The translations under genes and the position numbers were made by a program. Below the pieces are notes generated by a model. The model saw nothing but the letters and a program-made list of their open reading frames with translations, did no database searches and had not been told where the DNA came from. A DNA stretch of 64,000 nucleotides from a virus, in the IMG/VR virus record IMGVR_UViG_3300045988_109366, positions 85,042-149,041 of that record, one strand, 5' to 3'. Positions 96 to 56,678 of the stretch are shown here, piece after piece. Numbering within the stretch: position 1 is the stretch's first letter; each line of letters starts with the position of its first letter.

Positions 96-563
96 TCATA
101 ACATCCTAGCCATAAAATAAACAAACATAAAATCTATTCTCTCTTTGTTATCATCCATTCTATGCCCGGTAATTTCAAAAACAACCCTACGCTTTTCTAC
201 AGTCTGTATATTATCTAACTGAATAGCTATGTAAGGATATTTCATAACTTTCTCTCTATTGATGTTATTCAAAATAGCGTTGACATCTTGCCCGCGAAAA
301 TACATATTTACCCCTATGTAGCTGGCAACCAAAAGACATTCGTCTATTATCCCATCTGTATCGAATAACAATAACATATCATCCTTCTCGATAGTATATC
401 CCATATCAAGAATCTTGATACGTTTGCTCCCGTCCTTCTTATTAGCTATAAGAATCTCTATCATATCCTTATCGGTCGTAAGGATATAATACGCCTCATC
501 CTTTGTAATATTATCACGCAGATAAAGCAGCGCTTCATCTTGTAATTTCATAATTTCGTCCAT
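96..563 (-). CDS. hypothetical protein
   Basis: 155-aa ORF in the minus-strand gene array. No recognisable motif. Confidence 0.55.
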   Translation of the reverse strand: MDEIMKLQDEALLYLRDNITKDEAYYILTTDKDMIEILIANKKDGSKRIKILDMGYTIEKDDMLLLFDTDGIIDECLLVASYIGVNMYFRGQDVNAILNNINREKVMKYPYIAIQLDNIQTVEKRRVVFEITGHRMDDNKERIDFMFVYFMARML

Positions 564-588
564 ACTATTAGTATTTTATATTACCACT

Positions 589-656
589 CCAAAAAAAGAA
601 CGGCGGTAGACACCCGTGGCCTACCACGCCGTGACACCGCCGCCCGTTCCCATTGG
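589..656 (-). terminator. GC-rich hairpin, intrinsic-terminator-like (element A of the CCAA...TTGG-bounded family)
   Basis: Plus strand reads CCAAAAAAAGAACGGCGGT...ACCGCCGCCCGTTCCCATTGG. On the minus strand the stem GGCGGT/ACCGCC is followed by GTTCTTTTTTTGG, directly after the stop of ORF 659..988. Confidence 0.6.
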
Positions 657-658
657 TA

Positions 659-988
659 TTATTCTACCACCTCTAATTTCCCGTAATAAGGATAAAAACA
701 ACCGTCTCGATAAACCGAATATCTGAGCGTTTTATCCTTTGCTTCATAGATGGAAACACAACCGCTGTTATAAGCGTTGGATAGTTCTTTCGCTACAAAT
801 CCGCCTATTCGTTTATAGGTTTTAGGCGTATCACTCAACGGCCTGCCTACATATATTTTTACTCTCTTGCACTTCTTGTCGCCTACGTATATATCCTTTC
901 CACTAAGCTCCGTTAAATACATGAATCTCATATCAACCGATTTTAAATCCAACATTCCTCTATCTCTATCTCCATATGATCCGACCAA
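659..988 (-). CDS. hypothetical protein
   Basis: 109-aa ORF. Its 5' end overlaps ORF 943..1185, so the true start may be an internal Met. Confidence 0.45.
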   Translation of the reverse strand: MVGSYGDRDRGMLDLKSVDMRFMYLTELSGKDIYVGDKKCKRVKIYVGRPLSDTPKTYKRIGGFVAKELSNAYNSGCVSIYEAKDKTLRYSVYRDGCFYPYYGKLEVVE

Positions 989-1185
989 TCACATCTATCA
1001 ACGTCCTCGCCATCCTCAAAGTAATAGTAGGCCCATACCTGTACGCCTCCTACCTCTATATATCCATCACTTTTCCATTCTATCAACCCGTCTTGCCTTA
1101 CCACGTTGGTAGGCTCAGACCCTAGCGACAGCAGATTATTTACTATACTACCGCCAAATACGTTCCTTGATTCTTCTTTCGTCAT
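943..1185 (-). CDS. hypothetical protein
   Basis: 80-aa acidic ORF in the minus-strand array. Confidence 0.4.
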   Translation of the reverse strand: MTKEESRNVFGGSIVNNLLSLGSEPTNVVRQDGLIEWKSDGYIEVGGVQVWAYYYFEDGEDVDRCDWSDHMEIEIEECWI

Positions 1186-1217
1186 ATCAATATCAGATTT
1201 TTAATATTACACTAACG

Positions 1218-1288
1218 CCAAAGGGGGAACAGGGACGGACGACCAGCGGGGCCTACCCCACGCCATCGCCGCCCCCCGTTTCCCTTGG
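1218..1288. repeat. GC-rich palindromic element B (CCAAAGGGGGAAC...GTTTCCCTTGG)
   Basis: About 71 nt GC island in AT-rich DNA. Its termini are imperfect inverted repeats, and the inner hairpin is GGGG-CCTA-CCCC. Confidence 0.6.
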
Positions 1289-1433
1289 TTCCCTCCGCAT
1301 CACCCCCCATACTAATAAACAATATCCACCACCAATAACACCATACCCACCATCACTCACAACTGCCTTGCCTTGACGAGAAACTCCTACCACTTGCAAA
1401 CTTTTACATCTGATCGGAAGATACCCCTTGCTC

Positions 1434-1623
1434 GAAAGGCGTTTCCCTTGCTTGGTGTTTTTCCTCGCTTGGTGTTTTTCCCCTTGTTTGGAAAGGTTTT
1501 CCCTTGCTTGGAGGTGTTTCCCTTGTTTGGTGGTGTTTTTCTTGTTTGGTGTTTTTCCTTGCTTGGAAAGGTTTTTCTTGTTTGGAGGTGTTTTTTTCCT
1601 TGTTTGGAAATGTCCCATCAAGC
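1434..1623. repeat. Ten tandem degenerate 16-21 bp direct repeats (iteron-like)
   Basis: Units parsed contiguously: 1434-1454, 1455-1472, 1473-1489, 1490-1510, 1511-1529, 1530-1550, 1551-1566, 1567-1586, 1587-1607, 1608-1623. Consensus is about CCCTTGYTTGG(nn)GTGTTTTT. Confidence 0.85.
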
Positions 1624-1685
1624 AACCCCCACCCCCCTCGAAATCCTAAGACCTTCCGATACTTTGTTCCACGTGGAACGCCGAT

Positions 1686-1925
1686 TCAGTCTAGGATATC
1701 GAGGTCTTTGTTCTTGATTGCCTTATACACTTGCTTTATACAATAGATTGATAATAAAGCCAATAAAATAACTATGATTAAAGGGAGGGCGTCGCCCGTA
1801 GCTATAACATACCGCCCTAACTCAAACGCCATATACCCACAAAACAAGATAAGTACGAAATATATAAATATACCCATAAAAAATATACAATAAGTAAACA
1901 CGATTTTAAAACAACACTCAAACAA
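1686..1925 (-). CDS. possible small membrane protein
   Basis: 79-aa ORF with two long hydrophobic stretches. It is isolated in an otherwise ORF-poor region. Confidence 0.3.
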   Translation of the reverse strand: MFECCFKIVFTYCIFFMGIFIYFVLILFCGYMAFELGRYVIATGDALPLIIVILLALLSIYCIKQVYKAIKNKDLDILD

Positions 1926-2239
1926 TACAACAAATTGAGTATCAACAACATAATATATATCAACCCCTAGAGCTACCTCTAAGAGAAGACAAGCCTAGAT
2001 ATAGATAAAAAATATACAATAAGTACCGCCTATTATATACCTTTTAGGATCGATTCAAGCGCAAATCCATACATAAGGACGCAATTCACACGTCCGTATG
2101 GATATAGATATATACAAAATGATACATAATAAAGTATTTTACTTACACATTTATAATTAAGGCTTAAAATTTACCGCCTCAACACTTTTATGTGTAAGCA
2201 AAACATATGATTATGCTGTCATTTTGTAAAATTAGACAC

Positions 2240-2282
2240 AAAAAAAGCCCTTCCGTCTTATATCACTACAGTACAGAAGGGC
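2240..2282 (-). terminator. intrinsic terminator
   Basis: On the minus strand GCCCTTC...GAAGGGC is followed by TTTTTTT, just downstream of ORF 2315..2521. Confidence 0.6.
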
Positions 2283-2314
2283 ACAAACTTTAAAATCAAA
2301 TAAAAACAAACGAT

Positions 2315-2521
2315 CTATTGTCGTAATTTGTTTGCCATATAACTAACACGTTTCCGCCTACATTTATCAGAATCTCTACTACAATCTAATTTATTAGACT
2401 TGTATAGATCTTTGGTAAGTTCAACGTAAAATTCCATTTGAGACTTTCTTACAGCCTCTAAAGCCTTTTCTTTTTGAATGGATAATTTCTTATTCAAATT
2501 ATCAAACTTTTTTTTGTACAT
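2315..2521 (-). CDS. small charged/coiled-coil-like protein
   Basis: 68-aa ORF followed by its own hairpin and T-run. Confidence 0.45.
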   Translation of the reverse strand: MYKKKFDNLNKKLSIQKEKALEAVRKSQMEFYVELTKDLYKSNKLDCSRDSDKCRRKRVSYMANKLRQ

Positions 2522-2543
2522 AATCTATCCTTTTTTAATGGCA

Positions 2544-2631
2544 CCAATAAGAAACGGGAGACCGGGGACGACACGGCCGGCGTTATCGATATAACCAGCC
2601 GAACGCCCGCACGCCCCCCTATTTTCTTTGG
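2544..2631. repeat. GC-rich element C (CCAATAAGAAACGGG...CCCCTATTTTCTTTGG)
   Basis: About 88 nt GC island with purine-rich 5' and pyrimidine-rich 3' inverted termini, as in elements A, B and E. Confidence 0.5.
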
Positions 2632-3187
2632 TTTCGTCCCCTTGCCGACAACGAAGCCAACCAAATACGCACATACGTTGTCCGTGATACGTATCGACAA
2701 GGCGCACTTTGTACGTCAATTTAACCGCACAAAATACCCTTGTAAGGGTTGTTATTTACTATCCGTACACATGTTAGGTATTTAAGCAACCCTAACATAC
2801 GTCGTATTGATACATTAGCACGGAAATAACACCGTAATGCACTCCATGTGTGCTGCTCTCGCTACACATGGACATACGCCCTATACATGCGTATATACAC
2901 CAATATACCCCATGTTTTTACATGGCCTATCCGGTTGACCGGACGTATTAACCAGTCTTGATACATAGCCAAAAATAACGGCACGCCCCTGAACTAGGAG
3001 AACGCCTGATCACACTATTAGTCGGCAACCTATTTATACGAACTCTCGATACCCTACCGATTCGCATATCTATGTATCAATATGTTAAATATCTTATCTG
3101 TTTAGTCTAAATCAGTGGCACGGCGTGAACGTACAGATATCGCCACCATAATGCCCCTATATATAAAGATATAAGGACATCTTAATA

Positions 3188-3724
3188 TTATCTTACATTT
3201 TTATCGTGAGTAAGATAATAGGTGATACATTTGGCTATCAATGAAAACGAAAAATTCGTTATTTTAGTAGCCATTCGAGTAGATTTATATCTTTCATTAT
3301 TGTAAATAACGAAATAACCGCTTTTATCCTCAGAGTATTTAATAGGGGCACAATAGCCAAAAGCTTTATGTGTTGTGCCCAAAAGAATTTTCTGAGCTTG
3401 TTTTTCAGCTAACATTATTTTATTGTTGGCTGATTCATTTTCATCATTGTAAATCTTTTCTATTTCTATATATTGGCAAAATACGCCATCTATATTTGCA
3501 AGAATTTCTTTACAAATAGTAATAACCAATTCTTTATCTTTAGCCAAAGCGACTAAAGACGGGATAACATCTTTTGAAACTTCAATATTGTTTTCTTTGA
3601 TAATATCCATAACATCTTTTTTGCTATTAAACAATCTGCACCAAGATTTTATCGCACCCGTCAAAGTTTCAGACTCCGACTTTTTCACTGCATTTTGTAC
3701 TCGATTCAAATCTTTTGCTTTCAT
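3188..3724 (-). CDS. hypothetical protein (stand-alone transcription unit)
   Basis: 178-aa ORF with its own TATATTTG -7 box about 75 nt upstream. Flanked by long non-coding DNA. Confidence 0.6.
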   Translation of the reverse strand: MKAKDLNRVQNAVKKSESETLTGAIKSWCRLFNSKKDVMDIIKENNIEVSKDVIPSLVALAKDKELVITICKEILANIDGVFCQYIEIEKIYNDENESANNKIMLAEKQAQKILLGTTHKAFGYCAPIKYSEDKSGYFVIYNNERYKSTRMATKITNFSFSLIAKCITYYLTHDKNVR

Positions 3725-3800
3725 ATTAAATCGCCCTTGCCCTAGGGACTTGTATAGGCATCTAGCACGCCTCGTTTGTTAATATTGTTATCTCACATTG

Positions 3801-3808
3801 CAAATATA
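3801..3808 (-). promoter_or_regulatory. Bacteroidetes-type -7 box (TATATTTG on minus strand)
   Basis: Plus strand CAAATATA lies within ATTGCAAATATAAT. The same extended motif recurs at 13637, 34751 and, on the plus strand, 56744. Confidence 0.45.
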
Positions 3809-3971
3809 ATACATGTTTTATTTCCAAACAAATATTTTACAATAAAAATTCAACGATTATATATAATAAAACTAATCAAATGTAAATGTATATTAAAATA
3901 TTGATTTATATCATTGATAATCAACAATTTAAATCAAAAATAAGCATTCTTTTTTGGTTGGCTGGTCGTTT

Positions 3972-4058
3972 GCCGTTCCTTTTTCCCGCCCTTCGTGGAT
4001 TGGGGGGGCGGTCCAAAAAACGGCAGACCCCACGGCCCGATTTCGGGGAGGTGGTCCG
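3972..4058. repeat. GC-rich double hairpin (element D)
   Basis: GCCGTTCCTTTTTCCCGCCC pairs with GGGGGGGCGGTCCAAAAAACGGC. A second hairpin follows around CCCG-ATTT-CGGG. Confidence 0.55.
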
Positions 4059-4060
4059 TC

Positions 4061-4103
4061 CCTCATATCCCGCATATCCCTCATATCCCGCAATCCCTCA
4101 TAC
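4061..4103. repeat. Five tandem 8-9 bp units CCKCATATC
   Basis: The five units CCTCATATC, CCGCATATC, CCTCATATC, CCGCAATC and CCTCATAC are read directly from the sequence. Confidence 0.8.
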
Positions 4104-4238
4104 CTCTACATGTGATGCGCATCCCAACATATCCCTATCAAATCCATTCATCGTCCCCTCACGACCTTCTCATTAATTTTATTATATTTGCGATATAATA
4201 AAAACATAACATATTATGAATAAAGAAGTTGAATATAT

Positions 4239-4276
4239 GGGGGGGGGTATTTTAACCCTCAGATAAGGGGGGGGGG
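4239..4276 (+). promoter_or_regulatory. Two homopolymeric G tracts (G9 at 4239-4247, G10 at 4267-4276) immediately upstream of ATG 4278
   Basis: Counted directly. A similar G9 at 46494-46502 precedes gene 46521. Confidence 0.5.
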
Positions 4277-4277
4277 T

Positions 4278-4769
4278 ATGTTTAGGCGCAGGACTTCTTC
4301 CGGTAAGATCCACTACCGTGTTAATATAAACAAGAATATGTGTCTTGGCGTTGTAGATATATATATTGATAGGAAGCCATATCAACCTGGTTTTAACGGA
4401 TCTTATCTTGATATATATCGCGATAAGAAGATAAAAACTATAAGCATAAGTGGCCAGATATCATATCTAAATCCGAAAAATGAGTACAATGTTATTTTGG
4501 GCATAAGTGGAGGTATTATAGAGGGAACCCTTACGTATCAATATAATTCGGGTATGCATTGCGAGTTGGCTAATAAGGTGATATACGGGAATAGGATAAC
4601 TAATTTTGTTCCTGTAACGGAGATAGAAGATCCTGGGAAGATCATTAATTTCACTTACAGATCTGAATTACAGACTCAGGTTTTAGATGAAAGTCATGTA
4701 ACTTGGGATGGTGATTATATAAACGATAATTGTATAGTAACTGATCTTTGTTCGGGATGTGAATCTTAA
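4278..4769 (+). CDS. hypothetical protein (N-terminus MFRRR)
   Basis: 163-aa plus-strand ORF inside the minus-strand arm, followed by a GC hairpin and T-run. Confidence 0.55.
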   Translation: MFRRRTSSGKIHYRVNINKNMCLGVVDIYIDRKPYQPGFNGSYLDIYRDKKIKTISISGQISYLNPKNEYNVILGISGGIIEGTLTYQYNSGMHCELANKVIYGNRITNFVPVTEIEDPGKIINFTYRSELQTQVLDESHVTWDGDYINDNCIVTDLCSGCES

Positions 4770-4825
4770 GCCCATGGGAAAAGTTCTCGTGATAACTATC
4801 GAGTAACGGTAAGGATAGTGTAATT

Positions 4826-4894
4826 CCAAGGGAAGGAGGGAGACCTCGTCCTACCGGGCCTCCCCCGTCCTACCGGGCCTCCCGTTCTTTTTGG
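4826..4894 (+). terminator. GC-rich element E / intrinsic-terminator-like
   Basis: CCAAGGGAAGGAGGGAGACC, then two copies of CGTCCTACCGGGCCTCCC, then GTTCTTTTTGG. It lies downstream of the stop at 4769. Confidence 0.55.
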
Positions 4895-4958
4895 CTTCTC
4901 CCTGTCTTATCTTTGACCGGATATCAAAAATTCATATCTTTGGAACAAAACTACAATC

Positions 4959-5889: not shown

Positions 5890-6165
5890 TTATCTTTTGA
5901 TATACCTTTCTATAAGATCTATTGATAGTTTAGCTCCCAGCTCCTCCTCCAATAGGTTAAGGTAGTTCCGGTGCAGGCATCCGCCCCGCCCCACCTCCCT
6001 AAAGCCGGCCCCGTCCCGGATCCTGACCAGCCCTTTCCTTGGATCCATGTCGATCATATCCCGAAGCTCGTTCATGTTCTTAAACCTGTCTTCTATTACC
6101 TTAAATACATCGATCTTAGGTCTCTTATCCTTATCCTTGGACTTTATTTTAATTCTTCCACTCAT
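5890..6165 (-). CDS. hypothetical protein
   Basis: 91-aa basic ORF in the operon. Confidence 0.5.
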   Translation of the reverse strand: MSGRIKIKSKDKDKRPKIDVFKVIEDRFKNMNELRDMIDMDPRKGLVRIRDGAGFREVGRGGCLHRNYLNLLEEELGAKLSIDLIERYIKR

Positions 6166-7910: not shown

Positions 7911-8077
7911 CCCAAATAGTTATTATAAATAGGAGGGTCGTGCTACCCTCCTATAGATTACACACGAAAAATAGAACTGAAAGCGATCTTAAGCACGTAA
8001 GATTTTATTGATTCCCGTAGGCTGTCTACCGGTTATCGTTAATTACCGTACGGGAATATGTTTAAGAAAACACCATG

Positions 8078-8153
8078 TGGGGAGTGGGGGAATCGAACCC
8101 TTATCCACGCTACGATTAGGAATCGTAAATTCTATCCGTTAAATTAACTCCCC
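8078..8153 (-). tRNA. tRNA-Arg (anticodon CCT), slightly non-canonical
   Basis: Hand fold gives a perfect 7-bp acceptor stem (GGGGAGT/ACTCCCC) and a D arm containing GG. The anticodon stem TACGA/TCGTA is perfect, with loop TTCCTAA, and the T loop is TTCGATT. The T stem has only 3 GC pairs and the variable region is about 8 nt. Confidence 0.65.
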
Positions 8154-8202
8154 TTTATTCAAAGATCTATAAATTGTATATAATTACCAAACAATATTTT
8201 AG

Positions 8203-8268
8203 CGAATCCGGCTGGAATCGAACCAGCATCTCCAATATTATGGTAATCATCCAATGATCCTCGGATCC
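8203..8268 (-). tRNA. tRNA-like sequence, possible pseudo-tRNA (anticodon arm not foldable)
   Basis: Acceptor is GGATCCG/CGGATTC, the D arm is GATC-ATTGGAT-GATT, and the T arm is GCTGG-TTCGATT-CCAGC. Only 16 nt remain where an anticodon arm plus variable loop is needed, for 66 nt total. Confidence 0.4.
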
Positions 8269-8349
8269 ATATGTCCCGATCCTCCCGGACAAGGACATCA
8301 AACAAAATCTAAACTCTAAATCTAATGACAAATTATATTAATCCAACTG

Positions 8350-8423
8350 TGGACCCGGCCGGGCTTGAACCGACAACCTTCTGGTTATGAGCCAATTGCT
8401 CTTACCGATTGAGCTACGGGTCC
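8350..8423 (-). tRNA. tRNA-Met/Ile2-type (anticodon CAT)
   Basis: 74-nt cloverleaf: acceptor GGACCCG/CGGGTCC, D arm GCTC-AATCGGTAA-GAGC, anticodon loop CTCATAA, T arm GTCGG-TTCAAGC-CCGGC, discriminator A. No encoded CCA. Confidence 0.85.
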
Positions 8424-12155: not shown

Positions 12156-13256
12156 TTAAACAATAATTGATGATGATAAGAAATACTCGTTCTTATTATC
12201 CTCCCCATAAATCTTGTTGAAATGAGATTTATGGTCATGCTCGATAACGATCCTATTCCATGGTATGCTTTTAACTATACCAAGATACCTACCACATAGC
12301 ACATCGCATATAATATCATTACCGTTATGCGATAAAGCCGTAAGCCTTTCCTTACAAGATCTTCCAGACATAGGGTTCTCTGACATAATACCGCATCCTT
12401 TTTCAGTGAATATCAACTTACAATGATCAAACTCATTTACCTTAATATTATTTTGGAGGGCCTGGACGAGTAGATCCTTATCAAAGACATAGGTACTTGT
12501 TTTGACAAAATGCTCGTCCACGAACCTCCAATTTGGATAATTACCCTCAAAATGGGTCTCATACATATCCATATCAGGCGTAGAGAAATAAGTCTTAGTA
12601 TCATCCACTTTTATAGACAACATATCCGATGACTTATTGATATGCTTATCAAGCAATATCGCGGATTCGTTCGATACCGGGATAAACATCTTCTCTACCT
12701 TATCCTGATTAGGGACAAAATACCTGTAAATAGTATTTCTATCCGTACTTACTATATTAATATTAATATCATCAATATCAATAACCACATTCTCGATGCA
12801 TGGATAAAAGTCATCTACCTCCGTATAATCGCTGGCTTTGTTAAGAACCGAAACATAATCGCTCATCTTAACCTTAATTCCTCCATCAAGTATCTTATGT
12901 ACCTGCGGGAATGTATTGATATCAAAAGCCGGACAACTATACTCACCAGAAGCGTAGTGGATCGTGATCTGATCTTTTCTATCCGAAAGCAGTATCGTAA
13001 TCTCACAATTCTTCTGTTTTTTCATGAACTTAATAAAAGAGCTTGCCTCTACCAAGAAAGAGAAGTTAGAGTCAGCCTCGACCTCCAATCGCTCTATAAC
13101 ACATACCTTGGCATTTACGGAAGTGATATAAGCCAGATTATTGACAACATCTATCTTAAGATCCTTATAAAGGGAGTTGGAACCGGCGTTCTTAACCACC
13201 GTCTCCAGTTTACCCAACTTCTCATTTAATGACTTCGACAAGCACTTCAATACCAT
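12156..13256 (-). CDS. DNA polymerase sliding-clamp (beta/DnaN-like) protein
   Basis: 366 aa. The N-terminal pattern, including ...SGEYSCPAFDINTFPQV, parallels the end of DnaN domain 1 (..FSLSTLPAADFPNL). Size fits a three-domain clamp. Confidence 0.55.
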   Translation of the reverse strand: MVLKCLSKSLNEKLGKLETVVKNAGSNSLYKDLKIDVVNNLAYITSVNAKVCVIERLEVEADSNFSFLVEASSFIKFMKKQKNCEITILLSDRKDQITIHYASGEYSCPAFDINTFPQVHKILDGGIKVKMSDYVSVLNKASDYTEVDDFYPCIENVVIDIDDININIVSTDRNTIYRYFVPNQDKVEKMFIPVSNESAILLDKHINKSSDMLSIKVDDTKTYFSTPDMDMYETHFEGNYPNWRFVDEHFVKTSTYVFDKDLLVQALQNNIKVNEFDHCKLIFTEKGCGIMSENPMSGRSCKERLTALSHNGNDIICDVLCGRYLGIVKSIPWNRIVIEHDHKSHFNKIYGEDNKNEYFLSSSIIV

Positions 13257-13636
13257 ATAACATATTTTATTTGTTTATCATCCATAATTCATGTACAAGC
13301 TTTATAAAAATCATACTCCGAAACCGGAAATGATTCCGGAGTATGAATCCCGATTATGGGATAAATCAGGATAAAAATCCTGTTAGTACCCATCGCCAAT
13401 GTTACCAAAGGTTTCATACAAGCAGCACTGTTTTGCCGAATACGCTACTCCTGTTTAACCACTTGCCTTAGAGCCTTGGGCTTGGATAAACACCCTAGGG
13501 TAACTATACATTCTAAGGTAACGTAGTGCTCTAAGCACTTAGGCTAATAACCTGACCGTTTCCGGTATATGTAAAATATTTTTCAACATCTTACATATTA
13601 TCCGAGGTTATAATAAACAACTTTTACATGACATTG

Positions 13637-13644
13637 CAAATATA
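13637..13644 (-). promoter_or_regulatory. Bacteroidetes-type -7 box (TATATTTG on minus strand)
   Basis: Plus strand CAAATATA lies within ATTGCAAATATAAT. It sits about 380 nt upstream of the clamp start codon. Confidence 0.4.
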
Positions 13645-13687
13645 ATCATAATTATATTAATACAAATATAATAAATACTTAATAGTA

Positions 13688-14272
13688 TTAAAATAATTTA
13701 AACTTACGTCTAATATACTCGGCTATAAGCGTAGCGTCACACATTCCGTCTTGTATCTTAGTAGGTTGTATTCCTTTTCCTGACCATGGTTTCACGAAAG
13801 AGACCAAAGGGAAAAGGCGTATGGCGCATCGGATGGAGGTAGCTTTCGTATCTAACTTCGCCGCCGTATACACCCGATCGGCTGTCGTATGAAGCTCCTT
13901 CTGCCAGGTCTTTGGCTGTACCTCCTCGAACATGAACCTAACATCCGGGTGAGATCCGTATCGCTCCATCATCTCCACCATCATAGCGAATAGGGCGTTC
14001 GGTTCCCGGCGTCTCCCGCCAAAGGTGAAGTTGCTGGCGGCCGAGCTGTTGTGGATGCTGTGGACGTCCTCGACGGCGATCGCCAGCGTCCCGCCTCCCT
14101 CTTCTTGGATCTTGTCAGCGGCATCTAGGAGGAAGCTTGATATAGCCCTAAGGTCTATATCCCCCTTAGCCGATATCCTTGGAGTCATAATTACCTTAAT
14201 ATCCCCGTTCTCCGGGATCATGGACAATCCTCCGGTGTCTATACCCGGATCTATGCCTATTGATATATTCAT
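13688..14272 (-). CDS. RuvC-like Holliday junction resolvase
   Basis: N-terminal IGIDPGIDTGG, mid AVEDV and C-terminal DGMCDATLIAEY match the acidic catalytic positions of the RuvC fold. Confidence 0.7.
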   Translation of the reverse strand: MNISIGIDPGIDTGGLSMIPENGDIKVIMTPRISAKGDIDLRAISSFLLDAADKIQEEGGGTLAIAVEDVHSIHNSSAASNFTFGGRRREPNALFAMMVEMMERYGSHPDVRFMFEEVQPKTWQKELHTTADRVYTAAKLDTKATSIRCAIRLFPLVSFVKPWSGKGIQPTKIQDGMCDATLIAEYIRRKFKLF

Positions 14273-18541: not shown

Positions 18542-18783
18542 TTGTTGTTTATACGAAATTATCGTAATAAATTAGAGGGGGTAAATCACTGTGTTTGTGG
18601 AAGATCATTTTTGACACGACACTTGTTACGCGCGCGTTAATAGGTATATTTATTAAATATAATTAACTCTATAAACATATACTACTTTCTAATATCCCTA
18701 TCCGTACACAGAACCTCTCCTGACGTCGAGTTCCTGTGTACTCCACTTAAAGTCTCTATTTAATAAAACATTGCTTTTTACCG

Positions 18784-19382
18784 CCAAGGTATGGTGCCGT
18801 CAGGCAGGATACCGCAGGCTAAACATGGTAGAAGCCGTATCCTATACCGGAAGCCGGTACCCCGGTAGGGGGATCGGGTGGAGCATAAGCCAAAGAAGAA
18901 AAAGCGAGGTCTTGTACGATCGCTCGCGCTCCGGCCGTCCGTATCTTCTACGGCAGGCTCCATGCCCCAGGGCCTCCCATTTCCCTTGGCTTTATATCCC
19001 ACAGCTTAGGAGGAAGGAATCCAAAGGGAAAAAGGTAAGGTCTTGTACGGTCGCTCACGCTCCGGCCGTCCGTATCTTCTACGGCAGGCTCCATGTCAAT
19101 AGCGAATCTCTGGCGGCATTGTCCGGTATGACGGCGGTAGCCTTACCCTGGGTGTCCCCGAGCGTCCCCCACCAACCTTTTCCCTTTGGATGCCTTGGGC
19201 TATGTCATGGGACGATAAGAAGCCAAAAAAAGGAGTGGTCGCATCCCGTGAGGCAGGATAAGACTGTCCCCCTCCGTCCACGTGCGTAGCGTACGTTAAC
19301 TTCACTGCCCTCGCTATTGCAGACAGCCGTAGACATACATGGCTTCGTTCGTCCTACCCCCCAACTAGCTTTTATCCTTTGG
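18784..19382. repeat. GC-rich array of four structured units (candidate ncRNA locus)
   Basis: Unit 1 starts at 18784. The others are 18890-18989, 19021-19189 (termini CCAAAGGGAAAAAGG / CCTTTTCCCTTTGG) and 19223-19382. A 58-nt direct repeat (18907-18964 and 19038-19095) shows 2 mismatches. No credible ORF. Confidence 0.6.
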
Positions 19383-19460
19383 ATTCTCGTAAATACATGC
19401 TAGTCAGCATATATTATGTCGATTATGGCAAAATTTCTTGACAACGATATTTTTTTTAAG

Positions 19461-19468
19461 TAGTTTTG
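19461..19468 (+). promoter_or_regulatory. -7 box TAGTTTTG upstream of the first plus-strand gene
   Basis: Matches TAnnTTTG, 18 nt before ATG 19486. Confidence 0.45.
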
Positions 19469-19485
19469 CTGAAAACTAATTCCAT

Positions 19486-24929: not shown

Positions 24930-26255
24930 CTGGCAGATAGTTTAATACTTTCATGCCTTACATTTTTTCATCTTTGAATATTTAAATTAAAATATAGTGC
25001 ATTATGTTAATATCTTATAAATATAGAATTTATCCGACAGAAGAACAGAAGGTTTTGTTTGCCAAGACTTTCGGATGCTGCCGTTTTGTCTATAACTGGG
25101 CACTCAACCTAAAGATTGAAGCATATAAGCAGGGAAAGAAGTCCGTATCATACAAGGAAGTGCAGGATCGGATGGTAAACGAGCTGAAAAAGGAGAATAA
25201 ATGGCTGGCCGAGGTTAATTCGCAATCTCTTCTTAATTCTATCCGCAATCTTGATGCCGCCTATAAAAACTTCTTTCGTGATACTCATGCAATGGGGTTC
25301 CCACGTTTCAAGAGTCGAAAGAATAAGCAAAGTTTTCAATGTCCGCAACATTGTAGCGTGGACTTTATCAATGAGACCATTTCCATACCCAAGGCAAAAG
25401 ATATTCCTGCCGTGCTGCATCGCAAGTTCAAAGGTACGGTGAAAACCGTCACCGTCAGCATGACACCTTCGGGCAAATACTTTGCTTCCGTATTGGTTGA
25501 TACGGCTATCCATGAACTTCCGGCAATGACCATACAAGGTGATACGACTTTGGGTATAGACTTGGGTATCAAATCTCTTGCCGTATGTTCTGATGGACGC
25601 ACGTTTGACAATCCCAAAAACTTGAAGAGAAATCTTGATCGCTTGAAGTTTTTGCAAAAGCGGTTGAGCCGCAAACAGAAAGGATCATCCAACCGTAACA
25701 GGGAGCGTATTAAGGTTGCCAAATTACAGGAACACATAGCCAACAGACGTAGGGACAATCTTCATAAAATCACTTATGCGCTGACACACGATAGCCAAGT
25801 GCGTACCATCTGCATGGAGGATTTGAACGTGAAAGGAATGCAGCGTAACCATCACCTTGCACAGGCGGTCGGTGATGCTTCTTTCGGTATGTTCCTGACG
25901 ATGCTTGAATACAAGTGCAGGTGGTATGGTGTGAACCTCATAAAGATAGACCGATTTGCTCCGAGTTCGAAGACCTGCGGCAAATGTGGATATATCTATA
26001 AAGGATTGAAATTGAACGAGCGAAAATGGACTTGCCCGGAATGTGGCACACATCACGACCGGGATTTCAATGCCGCTTGCAATATCAAGGAATTTGGCTT
26101 GAAAGCCCTACCCACGGAGCGTGGGAAAGTCAAGCCTGTGGACTGTCCTCTTGTGGATGATAGACCTCGTGTCCTAAAAAGCAATGGCAGGAAGAAGCAG
26201 GAAAAGGAAGTAGATGATATTTCTATACACTCATGTTTTAGGCGCGAGAAGCTCA
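24930..26255 (+). mobile_element. IS200/IS605-family TnpB-only element (boundaries approximate)
   Basis: The tnpB ORF plus flanks is visibly more GC-rich than the surrounding phage DNA. The right limit is inferred from the portal promoter at 26262. Confidence 0.45.
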
Positions 26256-26284
26256 CTAACTTATCTTTGCTAAAAAATAATTAG
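25004..26284 (+). CDS. tnpB: TnpB (OrfB) RNA-guided endonuclease family protein
   Basis: N-terminus YKYRIYPTEEQ. RuvC residues sit in GIDLGIK, CMEDLNVKGM and HDRDFNAACNI. The zinc ribbon is CGKCG...CPECG. Confidence 0.9.
   Translation: MLISYKYRIYPTEEQKVLFAKTFGCCRFVYNWALNLKIEAYKQGKKSVSYKEVQDRMVNELKKENKWLAEVNSQSLLNSIRNLDAAYKNFFRDTHAMGFPRFKSRKNKQSFQCPQHCSVDFINETISIPKAKDIPAVLHRKFKGTVKTVTVSMTPSGKYFASVLVDTAIHELPAMTIQGDTTLGIDLGIKSLAVCSDGRTFDNPKNLKRNLDRLKFLQKRLSRKQKGSSNRNRERIKVAKLQEHIANRRRDNLHKITYALTHDSQVRTICMEDLNVKGMQRNHHLAQAVGDASFGMFLTMLEYKCRWYGVNLIKIDRFAPSSKTCGKCGYIYKGLKLNERKWTCPECGTHHDRDFNAACNIKEFGLKALPTERGKVKPVDCPLVDDRPRVLKSNGRKKQEKEVDDISIHSCFRREKLTNLSLLKNN
26262..26269 (+). promoter_or_regulatory. 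-7 box TATCTTTG upstream of the portal gene
   Basis: 22 nt before ATG 26291. It lies inside the last codons of the tnpB ORF. Confidence 0.45.
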
Positions 26285-49396: not shown

Positions 49397-49462
49397 AAAG
49401 GGACTATGATCTCTCACCGTCCCTTATCTAATTAGTTTTTAAAGAATATGCAAATAGTATAG

Positions 49463-49534
49463 AGGTCAGTCCCGGATTCGAACCGAGGTATATGGTTTTG
49501 CAGACCACCGACTAAACCGCTCATCCAACCGACC
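49463..49534 (-). tRNA. tRNA-Cys (anticodon GCA)
   Basis: 72-nt cloverleaf: acceptor GGTCGGT/ACTGACC, anticodon arm GTGGT-CTGCAAA-ACCAT, T arm CTCGG-TTCGAAT-CCGGG. The discriminator U is the Cys identity element. Confidence 0.85.
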
Positions 49535-49678: not shown

Positions 49679-49779
49679 CCAAAGGGAATGTGGCGGCTCC
49701 GTGAGGCAGGGCAGGAGGTATCCCCACACGGCCGGCCAGGAGCGGAGCGACTCGTAGCCCACCTCCCTTTTTCCCTTGG
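49679..49779. repeat. GC-rich structured element G (same family as units at 18784 and 19223)
   Basis: CCAAAGGGAATGTGGCGGCTCCGTGAGGCAGG...CCTCCCTTTTTCCCTTGG. It shares the CCGTGAGGCAGG core with 19243-19256. Confidence 0.6.
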
Positions 49780-50246: not shown

Positions 50247-50303
50247 AAACAAAAAAAATGAGTACTTTCACAAGCACTCATTTTGAAATGACAAATTTTT
50301 TAG

Positions 50304-50311
50304 TATCTTTG
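50304..50311 (+). promoter_or_regulatory. -7 box TATCTTTG
   Basis: 21 nt before ATG 50332. Confidence 0.5.
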
Positions 50312-56605: not shown

Positions 56606-56646
56606 TGATGCGCGTTTAGTTTTCCATAATAGTTGATTTAGTGTTT

Positions 56647-56678
56647 GGAGGAGATTGCATGTCTCCTCCATTTTTTTT
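56647..56678 (+). terminator. intrinsic terminator
   Basis: GGAGGAGA, loop ttgcatg, then TCTCCTCC, followed by ATTTTTTTT. Confidence 0.75.

Follow-up and report, generated by a model that had tools for sequence, protein, structure and literature searches.

The promoter-early stem-loop (PeSL) cassettes of T4-like phages combine GC-rich stem-loop terminator/attenuators with promoters, border ORFans and give rise to chimeras (Arbiol et al. 2010, PMC2839356; Comeau et al. 2014, PMC4122927). Like PeSLs, the elements described here are modules that recur between genes, mostly in a hypervariable region of small accessory genes, and have a GC-rich stem-loop proposed or shown to be a terminator/attenuator. 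Further parallels are the chimeric copies, the cassette deletions, insertions and replacements with breakpoints inside the modules, and the restriction to a single lineage. They differ in that a host-type promoter accompanies only E and some L15639 copies, that their ends form a defined CCAA-purine/pyrimidine-TTGG inverted repeat, that they are longer (68-169 nt) and partly arranged as a tandem array between divergent genome arms, and that the host belongs to the Bacteroidetes and is not an enterobacterium.

Other known systems share single aspects of this design. Intrinsic (Rho-independent) terminators, including bidirectional ones, likewise have a GC-rich hairpin with U-rich sequence on its 3' side and A-rich sequence on its 5' side, but here the tracts of B, C, L14854 and L15639 are interrupted by C, the U-tract has its pairing partner in the purine arm, and the copies are mutually paralogous. 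In phage T7, intercistronic RNase III hairpins of about 60 nt lie in polycistronic mRNAs, and cleavage leaves stabilising stem-loops, an arrangement that would suit the read-through demanded of B and C. Integron attC sites (57-141 bp) are likewise imperfect palindromes with variable interiors and conserved inverted AAC...GTT cores at the 3' end of gene cassettes; the core flanks, however, are RRRRAAC...GTTYYYY here and RYYYAAC...GTTRRRY in attC, and the cassettes here lie on both strands. REP, MITE and PATE elements are also short, palindromic, intergenic and repeated, but the present elements lack a GTAG head and occur in low copy number.

Definition and members of the family

We analysed a window of 64,000 nt (mean GC content 41%) from a crAss-like (Epsilon-group) phage of the human gut whose clade has genomes of ~150 kb. 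A first-pass annotation had grouped five GC islands, A to E, into one dispersed family of hairpins. All five are present and peak at 68-78% GC over 50 nt. A, B, C and E have the arms described for them, CCAA and a purine-rich arm at the start and a pyrimidine-rich arm and TTGG at the end, around a GC-rich interior. The CCTA-loop inner hairpins reported for A and B were found as well (GTGG-CCTA-CCAC and GGGG-CCTA-CCCC), as was the tandem repeat in E, a 19-nt duplication private to this genome of which relatives have one copy. D had to be removed from the group, since its arms stand in reverse order (GCCGTTCCTTTTT...AAAAAACGGC). Its folds reach z = -1.65 and -1.24, and because it lies upstream of a minus-strand promoter (Table 1) it is outside that transcript. 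Conversely, the family extends beyond the originally annotated 589-4894, as S1-S3 and T share the architecture and join A, B, C and E as non-coding members.

To count copies we used a composite pattern: CCAA plus at least 8 purines in 10, and at least 8 pyrimidines in 10 plus TTGG, 45-180 nt apart with an interior of at least 58% GC. Ten copies were counted in the window, whereas 200 shuffles preserving local composition gave a mean of 0.2 (maximum 2) and the mirrored window sequence gave 0; with arms of 9/10 the counts are 6 and 0 in shuffles. The single strings are near background frequency in the window (CCAA 249, TTGG 278), but chance does not account for the composite. Seven of the ten copies lie in non-coding DNA. 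One look-alike (5949-6042) falls within ORF 5890-6165(-), which an excess of third-codon-position substitutions marks as a real gene, and look-alikes at 14019, 29324 and 38327 likewise lie within ORFs. Inter-arm spacing ranges from 45 to 145 nt, while the short members are of even size (68-72 nt, nine types). Among hundreds of variants the exact CCAA and TTGG ends hardly change, and over all short and long members together the terminal inverted repeat is the sole universal feature.

Table 1. Elements and neighbouring features in the window
Feature	Coordinates	Strand	Description
A	589-656	-	68-nt GC-rich hairpin
B	1218-1288	-	71-nt hairpin; paralogue of A and E
19-nt tandem array	1425-1608		roughly 9-10 units
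C	2544-2631	-	88 nt; ends 22 nt ahead of ATG of ORF 2315-2521(-)
Promoter	3801-3832	-	downstream of D
D	3972-4058		different hairpin, then second small hairpin; not a member
E	4826-4894	+	69 nt; paralogue of A and B
Promoter	4912-4942		Bacteroidetes type, TTTG-N19-TAnnTTTG; 17 nt beyond E
S0	18783-18889		structured module opening the S array; starts GCCAAGG, no TTGG end; motif CCGTCAGGCAGG
S1	18890-18989		100-nt member
S2	19021-19189		169-nt member; perfect 14-bp closing helix CCAAAGGGAAAAAGG / CCTTTTCCCTTTGG
S3	19223-19382		160-nt member; U7 in minus sense; motif CCGTGAGGCAGG
tRNA-Cys	49462-49534	-	144 nt from T
T	49679-49779		101-nt member
Promoter	50282-50311	+	about 500 nt from T, which lies upstream
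Short terminator	56646-56670		10-bp stem, then T8

Kinship of the copies and recombination at the elements

In more than 250 related ~150 kb gut-phage contigs each copy is single and at the same place. Among 81 related loci, those with exactly one orthologue in the syntenic position number 43-80 according to the copy (80 for B). The A site holds A in 53 of the 81 loci, A' in 19 and no element in about 7-9.

A, B and E are diverged paralogues and not recent transposition products. Their interiors align in the same orientation at z = 4-6, in agreement with the earlier proposal of a related family, and they have in common a ~20-nt module, CCGCCNCCCGTTYYYYTTGG, which keeps one genome orientation despite genes on opposite strands. 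Dispersed copies are only about 60-65% alike, and an nhmmer profile of A, B and E matches these three alone; the likeness of C to them is confined to the 3' arm (nhmmer E = 7). The interiors of L15639 and L14105 are also similar (z = 8.4), as are those of S1 and, in reverse complement, T (z = 6.7). Element sequence drifts across relatives at about the synonymous rate, and the persistence of GC islands in AT-rich intergenic DNA in more than 250 genomes despite this drift speaks for selection on structure. True covariation did not exceed the shuffle control, as the relatives are too close.

The elements also serve as joints at which flanked cassettes are deleted, duplicated, inverted and swapped. 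This is shown by chimeric and deleted copies, by an inverted cassette of gene and element, and by the mosaic S array. In an A/B hybrid (rows A28/B56) the two genes between A and B are deleted, an E/L15639 chimera is present among the variants, and a gene together with its downstream element is inverted as one unit between L002 and L005. Element interiors are replaced wholesale between close relatives, and the S array has yielded S1-arm/S3, S2/S3 and S1/S2 fusions plus a duplicated S1. Alignment breakpoints are enriched 2.25-fold at elements (99 versus 44 expected). It is the arms and the ~20-nt module common to the copies that let the elements act as joints of homologous recombination.

Folding, strand sense and transcript context

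A, A' and L14854 (z = -3.5 to -4.5), S2 (-2.3 plus sense, -2.6 minus sense), B and, in minus sense, C fold significantly better than shuffles; for A the values are -3.5 in plus and -3.65 in minus sense, and C is structured only in minus sense (-2.24 versus -0.65). The overall folds of E (z = +0.6 / -0.6), S0, S1, T, L15639, cl8 and cl9 are no better than those of shuffles. The closing helix is stabler in the sense of the flanking gene in all but one (L14854) of 8 families, with a preference for minus in A, A', B, C and L14105 and for plus in E and L15639. The preference holds in 100% of 20 variants of A, 82% of the variants of C and 81% of 31 variants of E. B forms 20 pairs in minus sense, with 98.4% of 560 cells paired in 28 variants and three invariant G-U pairs; about 120 G-U cells would be A-C mismatches in plus sense. 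The polymorphism among A', A and B is an A<->G exchange in the arm facing G in gene sense.

The U-runs agree with gene direction, with U7 in minus sense for A (tail GCCGTTCTTTTTTTGG), U5 in minus sense for A' and U5 in plus sense for E, which upholds the terminator-like character that had been ascribed to A and E. The statement that B and C are not simple terminators also holds, their tracts being interrupted, and half of the copies have no U-tract. The distance from a stop codon to the start of the element is 2-56 nt for A, A', E, L14854 and L15639: A lies 2 nt past the stop of ORF 659-988(-) and 25 nt ahead of the ATG of ORF 96-563(-), and E 56 nt past the stop of ORF 4278-4769(+). B ends 32 nt ahead of the ATG of ORF 943-1185(-). 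No promoter was recognised between A, B or C and the next start codon (22-32 nt away), nor within 130 nt of A, A', B, C and L14854. There is no ORF upstream of B and C for 0.5-1 kb: in minus sense no credible one for ~1 kb at B, and about 550 nt of non-coding DNA at C. The arrangement of E followed by a promoter is kept in 17 of 26 relatives.

S0-S3, a tandem array with 2-6 units, occupy the 940 nt that separate the divergent replication and packaging modules, at the switch of GC skew and gene orientation. S0 is found in 78 of 80 loci, and one divergent variant carries a compensatory change from GGTAT/ATACC to GGTGT/ACACC. S1 and S2 share a direct repeat of 58 nt (96.6% identity, adjacent copies); S2 is full-length in only 44 of 78 relatives, with S1/S2 and S2/S3 fusion variants, and the S3 interior is swapped for a different allele in about 30. 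The arms favour minus sense in 96% of S1 and 89% of S3 variants. T is found at the same site in 33 of 37 related loci examined and has two alleles with a common core, GGCCGGCCAGGAGCGGAGCGACTC; a common structure is not kept between them, the closing helix being lost in T2. Its arms favour the tRNA strand. Independently of any hairpin, the box GTCGCTCNCGCTCCGGC is conserved in S1, S2 and T (reverse complement) and CCGTSAGGCAGG in S0, S3 and T.

Proposed function and alternative explanations

We see about an even chance that the elements are lineage-specific paralogous GC-rich stem-loops which act in the transcript, in the direction of the adjacent genes, as a predicted terminator/attenuator-type punctuation between gene cassettes. 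The Epsilon group is without the phage RNA-polymerase gene block, so the host polymerase presumably transcribes this phage. Once the nascent RNA has folded into the GC-rich stem, the purine arm (CCAARGGRAA) could pair with the U/C-rich arm (UUYCCYUUGG) via A-U and G-U, extending the hairpin into the tract where the polymerase would pause. Copies with long U-runs (A, A', E, S1-S3) would then terminate or strongly attenuate transcription. Most polymerases would pass the C-interrupted copies B and C, whose main effect might be a stable hairpin, either 3'-terminal in the upstream RNA or 5'-terminal in the downstream one. Because efficient termination at A, B and C would silence the genes downstream, read-through or antitermination must be assumed. 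The first-pass interpretation as a whole is partly supported: its 'conserved RNA module' fits the evidence best, while plain terminators without homologues are too simple for copies that are paralogous, lack a U-tract in half of the cases, stand in three cases directly before a start codon without a promoter, and act as recombination joints.

Several observations count against punctuation. A terminator seems superfluous between the divergent modules that flank S0-S3; the orientation of the ~20-nt module in A, B and E ignores gene strand; the A site is empty in some genomes; B and C lack an ORF upstream; several members fold no better than shuffles; and the phage has ordinary short terminators besides (Table 1).

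It is unlikely, in our estimate, that the modules (S0-S3 and T at least, possibly all) are small structured non-coding RNA genes, excised from longer transcripts at the closing helix like tRNAs or the small stable RNAs of the T4 tRNA cluster, and working for example as a decoy, a scaffold or the partner of an RNA-binding protein. The even size of the short members would suit such genes, as would a tandem array not obviously inside any mRNA, the proximity of T to tRNA-Cys, the conserved boxes and the compensatory change in S0; yet no Rfam family matches even at E <= 5, no promoter is recognisable for the S array, and S0, S1 and T are among the modules without significant folds. The gene products of csAssE-Sib, a related phage, include Ro60-like, polynucleotide kinase and CCA-adding/poly(A) polymerase proteins, but the window has no Ro60 gene. 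The divergence of the T alleles and the wholesale swaps of interiors fit poorly, and same-orientation paralogues that serve opposite-strand genes argue against an oriented RNA gene.

Somewhat more doubtful is that a phage protein (replication initiator, partition/packaging protein or recombinase) recognises the arms as DNA sites, the element being an inverted site pair around a GC-rich spacer and related to the 19-nt array. Each unit of this array carries TTTCCCTTG(C)TTGG, a string that resembles the 3' arm TTTCCCTTGG, and about 25 of 80 related contigs have an end in the region of the array and B. A terminal inverted repeat as the only universal feature, a module in one genome orientation whatever the gene direction, the S array at the skew switch and cores that recall attC could be read in the same way. 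However, a double-stranded DNA site would not produce the sense-dependent G-U pattern, which tracks gene direction and, unlike attC, points to RNA. Interior hairpins are significant and variation keeps their pairing, arm spacing varies widely, the core polarity is opposite to that of attC, and a scan of 40 window ORFs against PHROGs or Pfam turned up neither an integrase nor a recombinase.

We regard it as improbable that the elements are unrelated ordinary terminators, alike only through the A-tract/hairpin/U-tract form in an AT-rich genome. A and E do have canonical anatomy, and bidirectional terminators generally have the A-rich and U-rich flanks seen here, but neither the similarity of interiors (A/B/E, S1/T, L15639/L14105) nor the near-invariant ends and the excess over shuffles would follow, and the canonical short terminator of the same genome (Table 1) has neither family size nor family ends.

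Spread by transposition as non-autonomous MITE-, REP- or PATE-like elements, as first suggested, is very improbable: termini like terminal inverted repeats, paralogous copies, an A site that holds A, A' or nothing, and the tnpB genes and HEARO RNA in the window are outweighed by the lack of target-site duplications, of near-identical dispersed copies (the adjacent S1/S2 repeat excepted), of likeness to tnpB element ends and of a tnpA or RAYT gene, by the single syntenic site of each copy and by 'empty' A sites that have different flanks and not clean excisions. The search of 185,579 bacterial and archaeal genomes, made with the A/B/E-type pattern, returned one apparently chance match, and csAssE-Sib has no element of the CCAA-purine/pyrimidine-TTGG architecture. 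The string CCTACCCACGG, noted earlier near the first tnpB, does occur there (near 26107-26117), as an isolated 11-mer match that forms part of a CCCACGG-AGC-GTGGG hairpin.

Composite ends and their distribution

All five GC islands of the first-pass annotation lie where it had placed them. As described there, A, B, C and E share a common plan, in which CCAA and a purine arm open the element and a pyrimidine arm and TTGG close it around a GC-rich interior; D, which had been counted as a further member, is a hairpin with the opposite arm order and is built differently. The annotation had allowed that the shared ends might disappear against the background of CCAA and TTGG strings. This applies to the single strings (249 and 278), which occur at about background level, and not to the composite architecture, which is found 10 times in the window, versus 0.2 times in 200 shuffles with local composition retained and never in the mirrored sequence; a strict version gives 6 copies versus 0. 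Seven of the 10 composite copies are non-coding, namely A, B, C, E, T and two units of the S array, S1 and S2. The array unit S3 has ends as in the family, yet was missed by the composite filter. A look-alike falls within a real gene, as judged by codon-position substitution rates, and three other matches also lie within ORFs. The observation as a whole is confirmed and extended, and its first interpretation is supported in part. The hexamers CCAAGG and CCTTGG are themselves frequent in the window, coding DNA included (27 and 24 occurrences, about 2.5-fold over the roughly 10 expected from base composition).

The window, with a GC content of 41%, stems from a human-gut phage of about 150 kb that belongs to the Epsilon group of crAss-like phages. 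The major capsid protein shares 58% identity with its counterpart in the related crAss-like phage csAssE-Sib and 29% with the one in Cellulophaga phage phi17:2. The Epsilon group, at about 150 kb, is without the crAss RNA-polymerase gene block (Yutin et al., PMC7886860), and therefore presumably needs the host polymerase. Bacteroidetes-type promoters (TTTG-N17-23-TAnnTTTG) number 8 in the window versus 1.6 expected.

Relatives encoding the neighbouring genes comprise one GenBank contig (MT836733, 88.7% identity) and more than 250 IMG/VR contigs of 90-159 kb. Each element has one orthologue per related locus, always in syntenic position, and further types with the same ends occur in the relatives (A', L14854, L15639, L14105, cl8 and cl9); all short types measure 68-72 nt. 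The commonest 'cluster' in the relatives (58 nt, CCAAAGGACAGGG...) was dropped as coding, as it lies inside a 129-aa ORF. Searching 185,579 bacterial and archaeal genomes with an A/B/E-type pattern gave one match, apparently by chance, and the matches in IMG/VR were mostly contigs that share size range and source metagenomes with the window's relatives. In csAssE-Sib no element of CCAA...TTGG architecture was found in the first 150,000 of 151,256 bases. On these searches the family is specific to one clade. A literature search for similar elements in crAss-like or Bacteroides phages gave nothing relevant.

Elements and other features, with the sense of flanking genes, the sense in which the closing arms are more stable, the share of variants showing this, and the longest U-run in gene sense
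Feature	Position in window	Flanking genes	Arms more stable	Variants	U-run	Remark
A	589-656	minus	minus	100%	U7 (minus)	
A'	(L001 2184-2254)	minus	minus	90%	U5 (minus)	type in relatives
B	1218-1288	minus	minus	68%	3	
19-nt tandem array	1425-1608					adjoins B; unit CCCTTGCTTGGAGGTGTTT
Near-invariant segment	2001-2050					mismatch rate 0.004 in relatives
C	2544-2631	minus	minus	82%	3	
Conserved non-coding DNA	2632-3187					about 550 nt; upstream (minus sense) of C
D	3972-4058					hairpin with opposite arm order
9-nt repeat	4059-4102					TCCCTCATA x5, immediately following D
Two runs of 8-10 G	4228-4271					just upstream of ATG of ORF 4278-4769(+)
E	4826-4894	plus	plus	81%	U5 (plus)	
Promoter after E	4912-4942					TTTG-N19-TATCTTTG
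Look-alike	5949-6042					coding
tRNA-like signal	8202-8268					between tRNA-Arg (8077-8153) and tRNA-Met (8349-8423)
HEARO RNA	13382-13611(-)					IscB omega-type, full length
S0	18783-18889					first unit of S array
S1	18890-18989		minus	96%		
S2	19021-19189		minus	61%		
S3	19223-19382		minus	89%		
tnpB	25004-26284(+)					omega-RNA-like region to ~26290
T	49679-49779					adjoins tRNA-Cys
Short terminator	56646-56670					10-bp stem + T8
L14105		minus	minus	single sequence		type in relatives
L15639		plus	plus	100%	2	type in relatives
L14854		plus	minus (exception)	single sequence		type in relatives

Folding, gene sense and position

Hairpin stability was scored against dinucleotide shuffles. Strong folds were obtained for A (z = -3.5 / -3.65), A' in the minus sense (-4.1) and L14854 (-3.9 / -4.5), and moderate ones for S2, B and C, the last in the minus sense only; across A, A', B and C the minus-sense hairpins range from z = -2.0 to -4.1. 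E (z = +0.6), S1, S0, T, L15639, cl8 and cl9 fold no better than shuffles, and alifold gave no convincing consensus on either strand for E, C, S0-S3 or T. Wobble asymmetry was more informative, since a G-U pair turns into an A-C mismatch when the opposite sense is read; for every variant we therefore calculated, in both senses, the energy of the duplex formed by the 16 nt at its two ends. Closing-arm stability matches the local gene sense in seven of eight families.

Across 28 variants of B, the 20 minus-sense pairs remain intact in 98.4% of 560 cells; G-U accounts for about 120 of the intact cells, and three pairs are invariantly G-U. This pattern is one of compatibility and not of covariation, of which none was found: the changes are one-sided, from G-C to G-U, and the paired fraction is not above the shuffle control, which is equally high because the relatives are too close. 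An uninterrupted U-tract directly 3' of the stem is missing in half of the family. Together, the strand asymmetry, the pairs in B and the U-runs favour a helix that would work in mRNA, in agreement with the conserved RNA module that the first-pass annotation had offered as one reading.

The positions of the elements relative to genes differ. A begins 2 nt past the stop of ORF 659-988(-) and ends 25 nt ahead of the ATG of ORF 96-563(-), whereas B and C end 32 and 22 nt ahead of the next ATG and have no ORF upstream for 0.5-1 kb; no promoter motif was found in the 22-32 nt between A, B or C and that ATG. E begins 56 nt past a stop and is followed 17 nt on by a promoter. Such coupling, with TTTG-N-TAnnTTTG 16-17 nt downstream, is seen in 17 of 26 copies of E and 8 of 19 of L15639, and in 0 copies of A, A', B, C and L14854. 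A', L14854 and L15639 begin about 25 nt or less from a stop codon. By position and gene-sense U-runs A and E thus look like the terminators they had been proposed to be; B and C, earlier judged not to be simple terminators on account of their interrupted U-tract, must be read through. Compared with an intrinsic terminator, a stable gene-sense hairpin is present in A, A', B and C and not in E; the end-of-unit position with a promoter before the next gene holds for E and not for A, B and C. The same genome also contains ordinary short terminators, such as the one at 56646-56670. A generic scan for sigma-70 promoters and terminators was not enriched over shuffles and was uninformative.

Kinship and cassette exchange

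With termini removed, A, B and E still resemble one another internally and share the core CCGCCNCCCGTTYYYYTTGG: alignment of their interiors gives z = 4-6 when all run the same way and about 0 when one is reversed. L14105 corresponds to the reverse complement of both L15639 (z = 8.4) and L14854 (z = 6.4), T to that of S1 (z = 6.7), and a 58-nt direct repeat is common to S1 and S2. Joint alignment of A, A' and B failed, with stems out of register and only 3 pairs from RNAalifold; an nhmmer profile and degenerate patterns were therefore used in place of a covariance model. The A/B/E profile scored significantly at A, B and E only; elsewhere it reached weak scores on the 3' arm of S1 (E = 0.68) and on that of C (E = 7.1). 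These similarities thus point to a loose network of old paralogues joined by their ends and not to products of recent transposition.

The elements cluster at 564-4900, a region of varying gene content among relatives; the conserved 10 kb to the left of the cluster hold no non-coding copy and a single match inside an ORF. Among 81 related loci, the A site carries A in 53, A' in 19 and no element in about 7-9, and in some loci A' lies between the same flanks as A. One genome has an A/B hybrid with both intervening genes deleted, other genomes have an E/L15639 chimera, and a gene with its downstream element (81% amino-acid identity) is inverted as a unit between two loci (L002 and L005). Alignment breakpoints within 15 nt of an element number 99 versus 44 expected, counts that are phylogenetically non-independent, and several breakpoints fall away from elements.

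The evidence best supports reading the elements as a family of RNA stem-loops, which would punctuate transcription between accessory cassettes. Some copies would terminate or attenuate transcription, and others would serve as hairpins for stabilisation or processing; the copies would have multiplied together with the cassettes. The shared arms act as joints for homologous recombination. The PeSL cassettes of T4-like phages, promoter-early stem-loops, have likewise been described as punctuating, recombining stem-loop modules (PMC2839356, PMC4122927). Similarly, the elements sit in a hypervariable region flanking small accessory ORFs, and breakpoints and chimeric copies lie inside them, including the fusions and duplications of the S array. 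They differ in that promoter coupling is limited to E and some L15639 copies, and for this reason they seem PeSL-like in action yet not clear members. They may be a variant of the regulatory stem-loop cassettes through which modules are also shuffled.

If this proposal is right, the elements mark the limits of transcription units and possible sites of attenuation in an uncultured gut-phage clade that is abundant but unstudied, and would explain much of the gene-content mosaicism in its accessory region. The stem-loop cassette shuffling known in T4-like coliphages would then also run in Bacteroidetes phages, which use quite different promoters.

Alternative readings and neighbouring non-coding features

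The S region is a mosaic with copy-number variation and allelic interiors, comprising in individual relatives an S1-arm/S3 fusion (L276), an S2/S3 fusion (L241), an S1/S2 fusion (L232), a duplicated S1 (L204) and an internal duplication (L211). It occupies the gap between divergent replication and packaging modules (18542-19485), which measures 940 nt in the window phage versus 53 nt in csAssE-Sib. Gain, loss and fusion of whole CCAA...TTGG units make the length of this gap vary among close relatives (L202-L281), from about 500 nt to over 700 nt. Boxes recur in the interiors, GTCGCTCNCGCTCCGGC in S1, S2 and T (as reverse complement) and CCGTSAGGCAGG in S0, S3 and T. The minus-sense bias of the S1-S3 arms, together with U-runs of U5, U5 and U7, predicts leftward transcription through the array; no minus-strand promoter is recognisable right of S3, so this prediction is unsupported.

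The S array, which would be a new class of phage non-coding RNA if it encodes RNAs, may instead, like T, consist of genes for structured small RNAs. The conserved interior boxes speak for this, as do the tRNA next to T and the location of the array, which is not obviously within an mRNA. However, no element matches Rfam 15 (including Y RNA/YrlA, ribozymes and sRNAs) by gathering score or even at E <= 5. We consider it unlikely that the CCAA...TTGG units, chiefly S0-S3 and T, are a new family of structured small RNAs released from precursors at the purine/pyrimidine closing helix, whose swappable interiors (GTCGCTCNCGCTCCGGC, CCGTSAGGCAGG) would engage RNA-binding machinery of the host or the phage, either as decoys or as partners. 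In this context, csAssE-Sib has an annotated Ro60-related protein (L283 23091-24725, corresponding to csAssE-Sib 73091-74725) adjoining tRNA-Tyr and tRNA-Lys, and further encodes (L282/L284) a polynucleotide kinase/phosphatase, an NrnA-like phosphodiesterase, a poly(A)/CCA-adding enzyme and a diversity-generating retroelement. The window itself has no Ro60 homologue for such a Ro60/Y-RNA link; the best 80 viral-contig matches to the csAssE-Sib protein are 97-99% identical and on contigs not among the window's relatives.

Alternatively, the arms may serve as sites at the DNA level and be akin to the 19-nt tandem array beside B, about 9-10 copies whose units carry TTTCCCTTG(C)TTGG, resembling the 3' arm of the elements. 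About 25 of 80 related IMG/VR contigs, many of about 150 kb, end at the equivalent of window position ~1250-1700. The array itself may represent origin iterons, a genome end or simply an assembly breaker, and the strong GC-rich hairpins together with this array are probably why many metagenomic assemblies of these phages break here.

The propagated REP-, MITE- or PATE-like element of the first-pass annotation did not hold up, and each such membership fails a tested defining feature, as does that of integron attC sites. The ends resemble the terminal inverted repeats of MITEs, but A, B, C and E have no target-site duplications, their flanks are unlike each other (ACCACT/TATTAT, CTAACG/TTCCCT, ATGGCA/TTTCGT and GTAATT/CTTCTC), and near-identical non-syntenic copies are absent, each query matching one place per locus and the profile only A, B and E. 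With 68-169 nt and a CCAA start the elements differ from REPs (20-40 nt palindromes with a GTAG head), and the A/B/E-type pattern is not abundant in bacterial and archaeal genomes (one apparently chance match in 185,579); no RAYT gene was seen among the ORFs scanned. A PATE or IS200-IS605 derivative is contradicted by blastn-short of all elements against the window, without a match to the tnpB flanks, and the CCTACCCACGG string noted in the omega-RNA region is an isolated 11-mer within a separate hairpin. The flank polarity of the cores (RRRRAAC...GTTYYYY) is opposite to that of attC (RYYYAAC...GTTRRRY), and no integrase (IntI) was found among window ORFs scanned.

The tnpB gene itself (PHROG transposase, E = 8e-130) lies between the large terminase and portal genes. 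The HEARO RNA (94.3 bits, E = 5.5e-18) is served by a separate Bacteroidetes-type promoter (13637-13666(-)) and a hairpin resembling a terminator (13346-13311); no IscB ORF adjoins it, and it has the look of an orphan omega RNA. It is flanked downstream by ORF 12156-13256(-), with a match to a sliding clamp, and upstream by an ORF with a match to a Holliday-junction resolvase; only about 100 nt separate clamp and resolvase in csAssE-Sib. Within the left cluster, the conserved DNA next to C contains many short palindromes (ACGT, GTAC, CATG), and the coding status of ORF 4278-4769(+) is uncertain because it has no third-position substitution excess (0.129 / 0.084 / 0.096). The tRNA-like signal is weak, scoring 24.7 bits in antisense against an unrelated Rfam model, and possibly represents a decayed tRNA.
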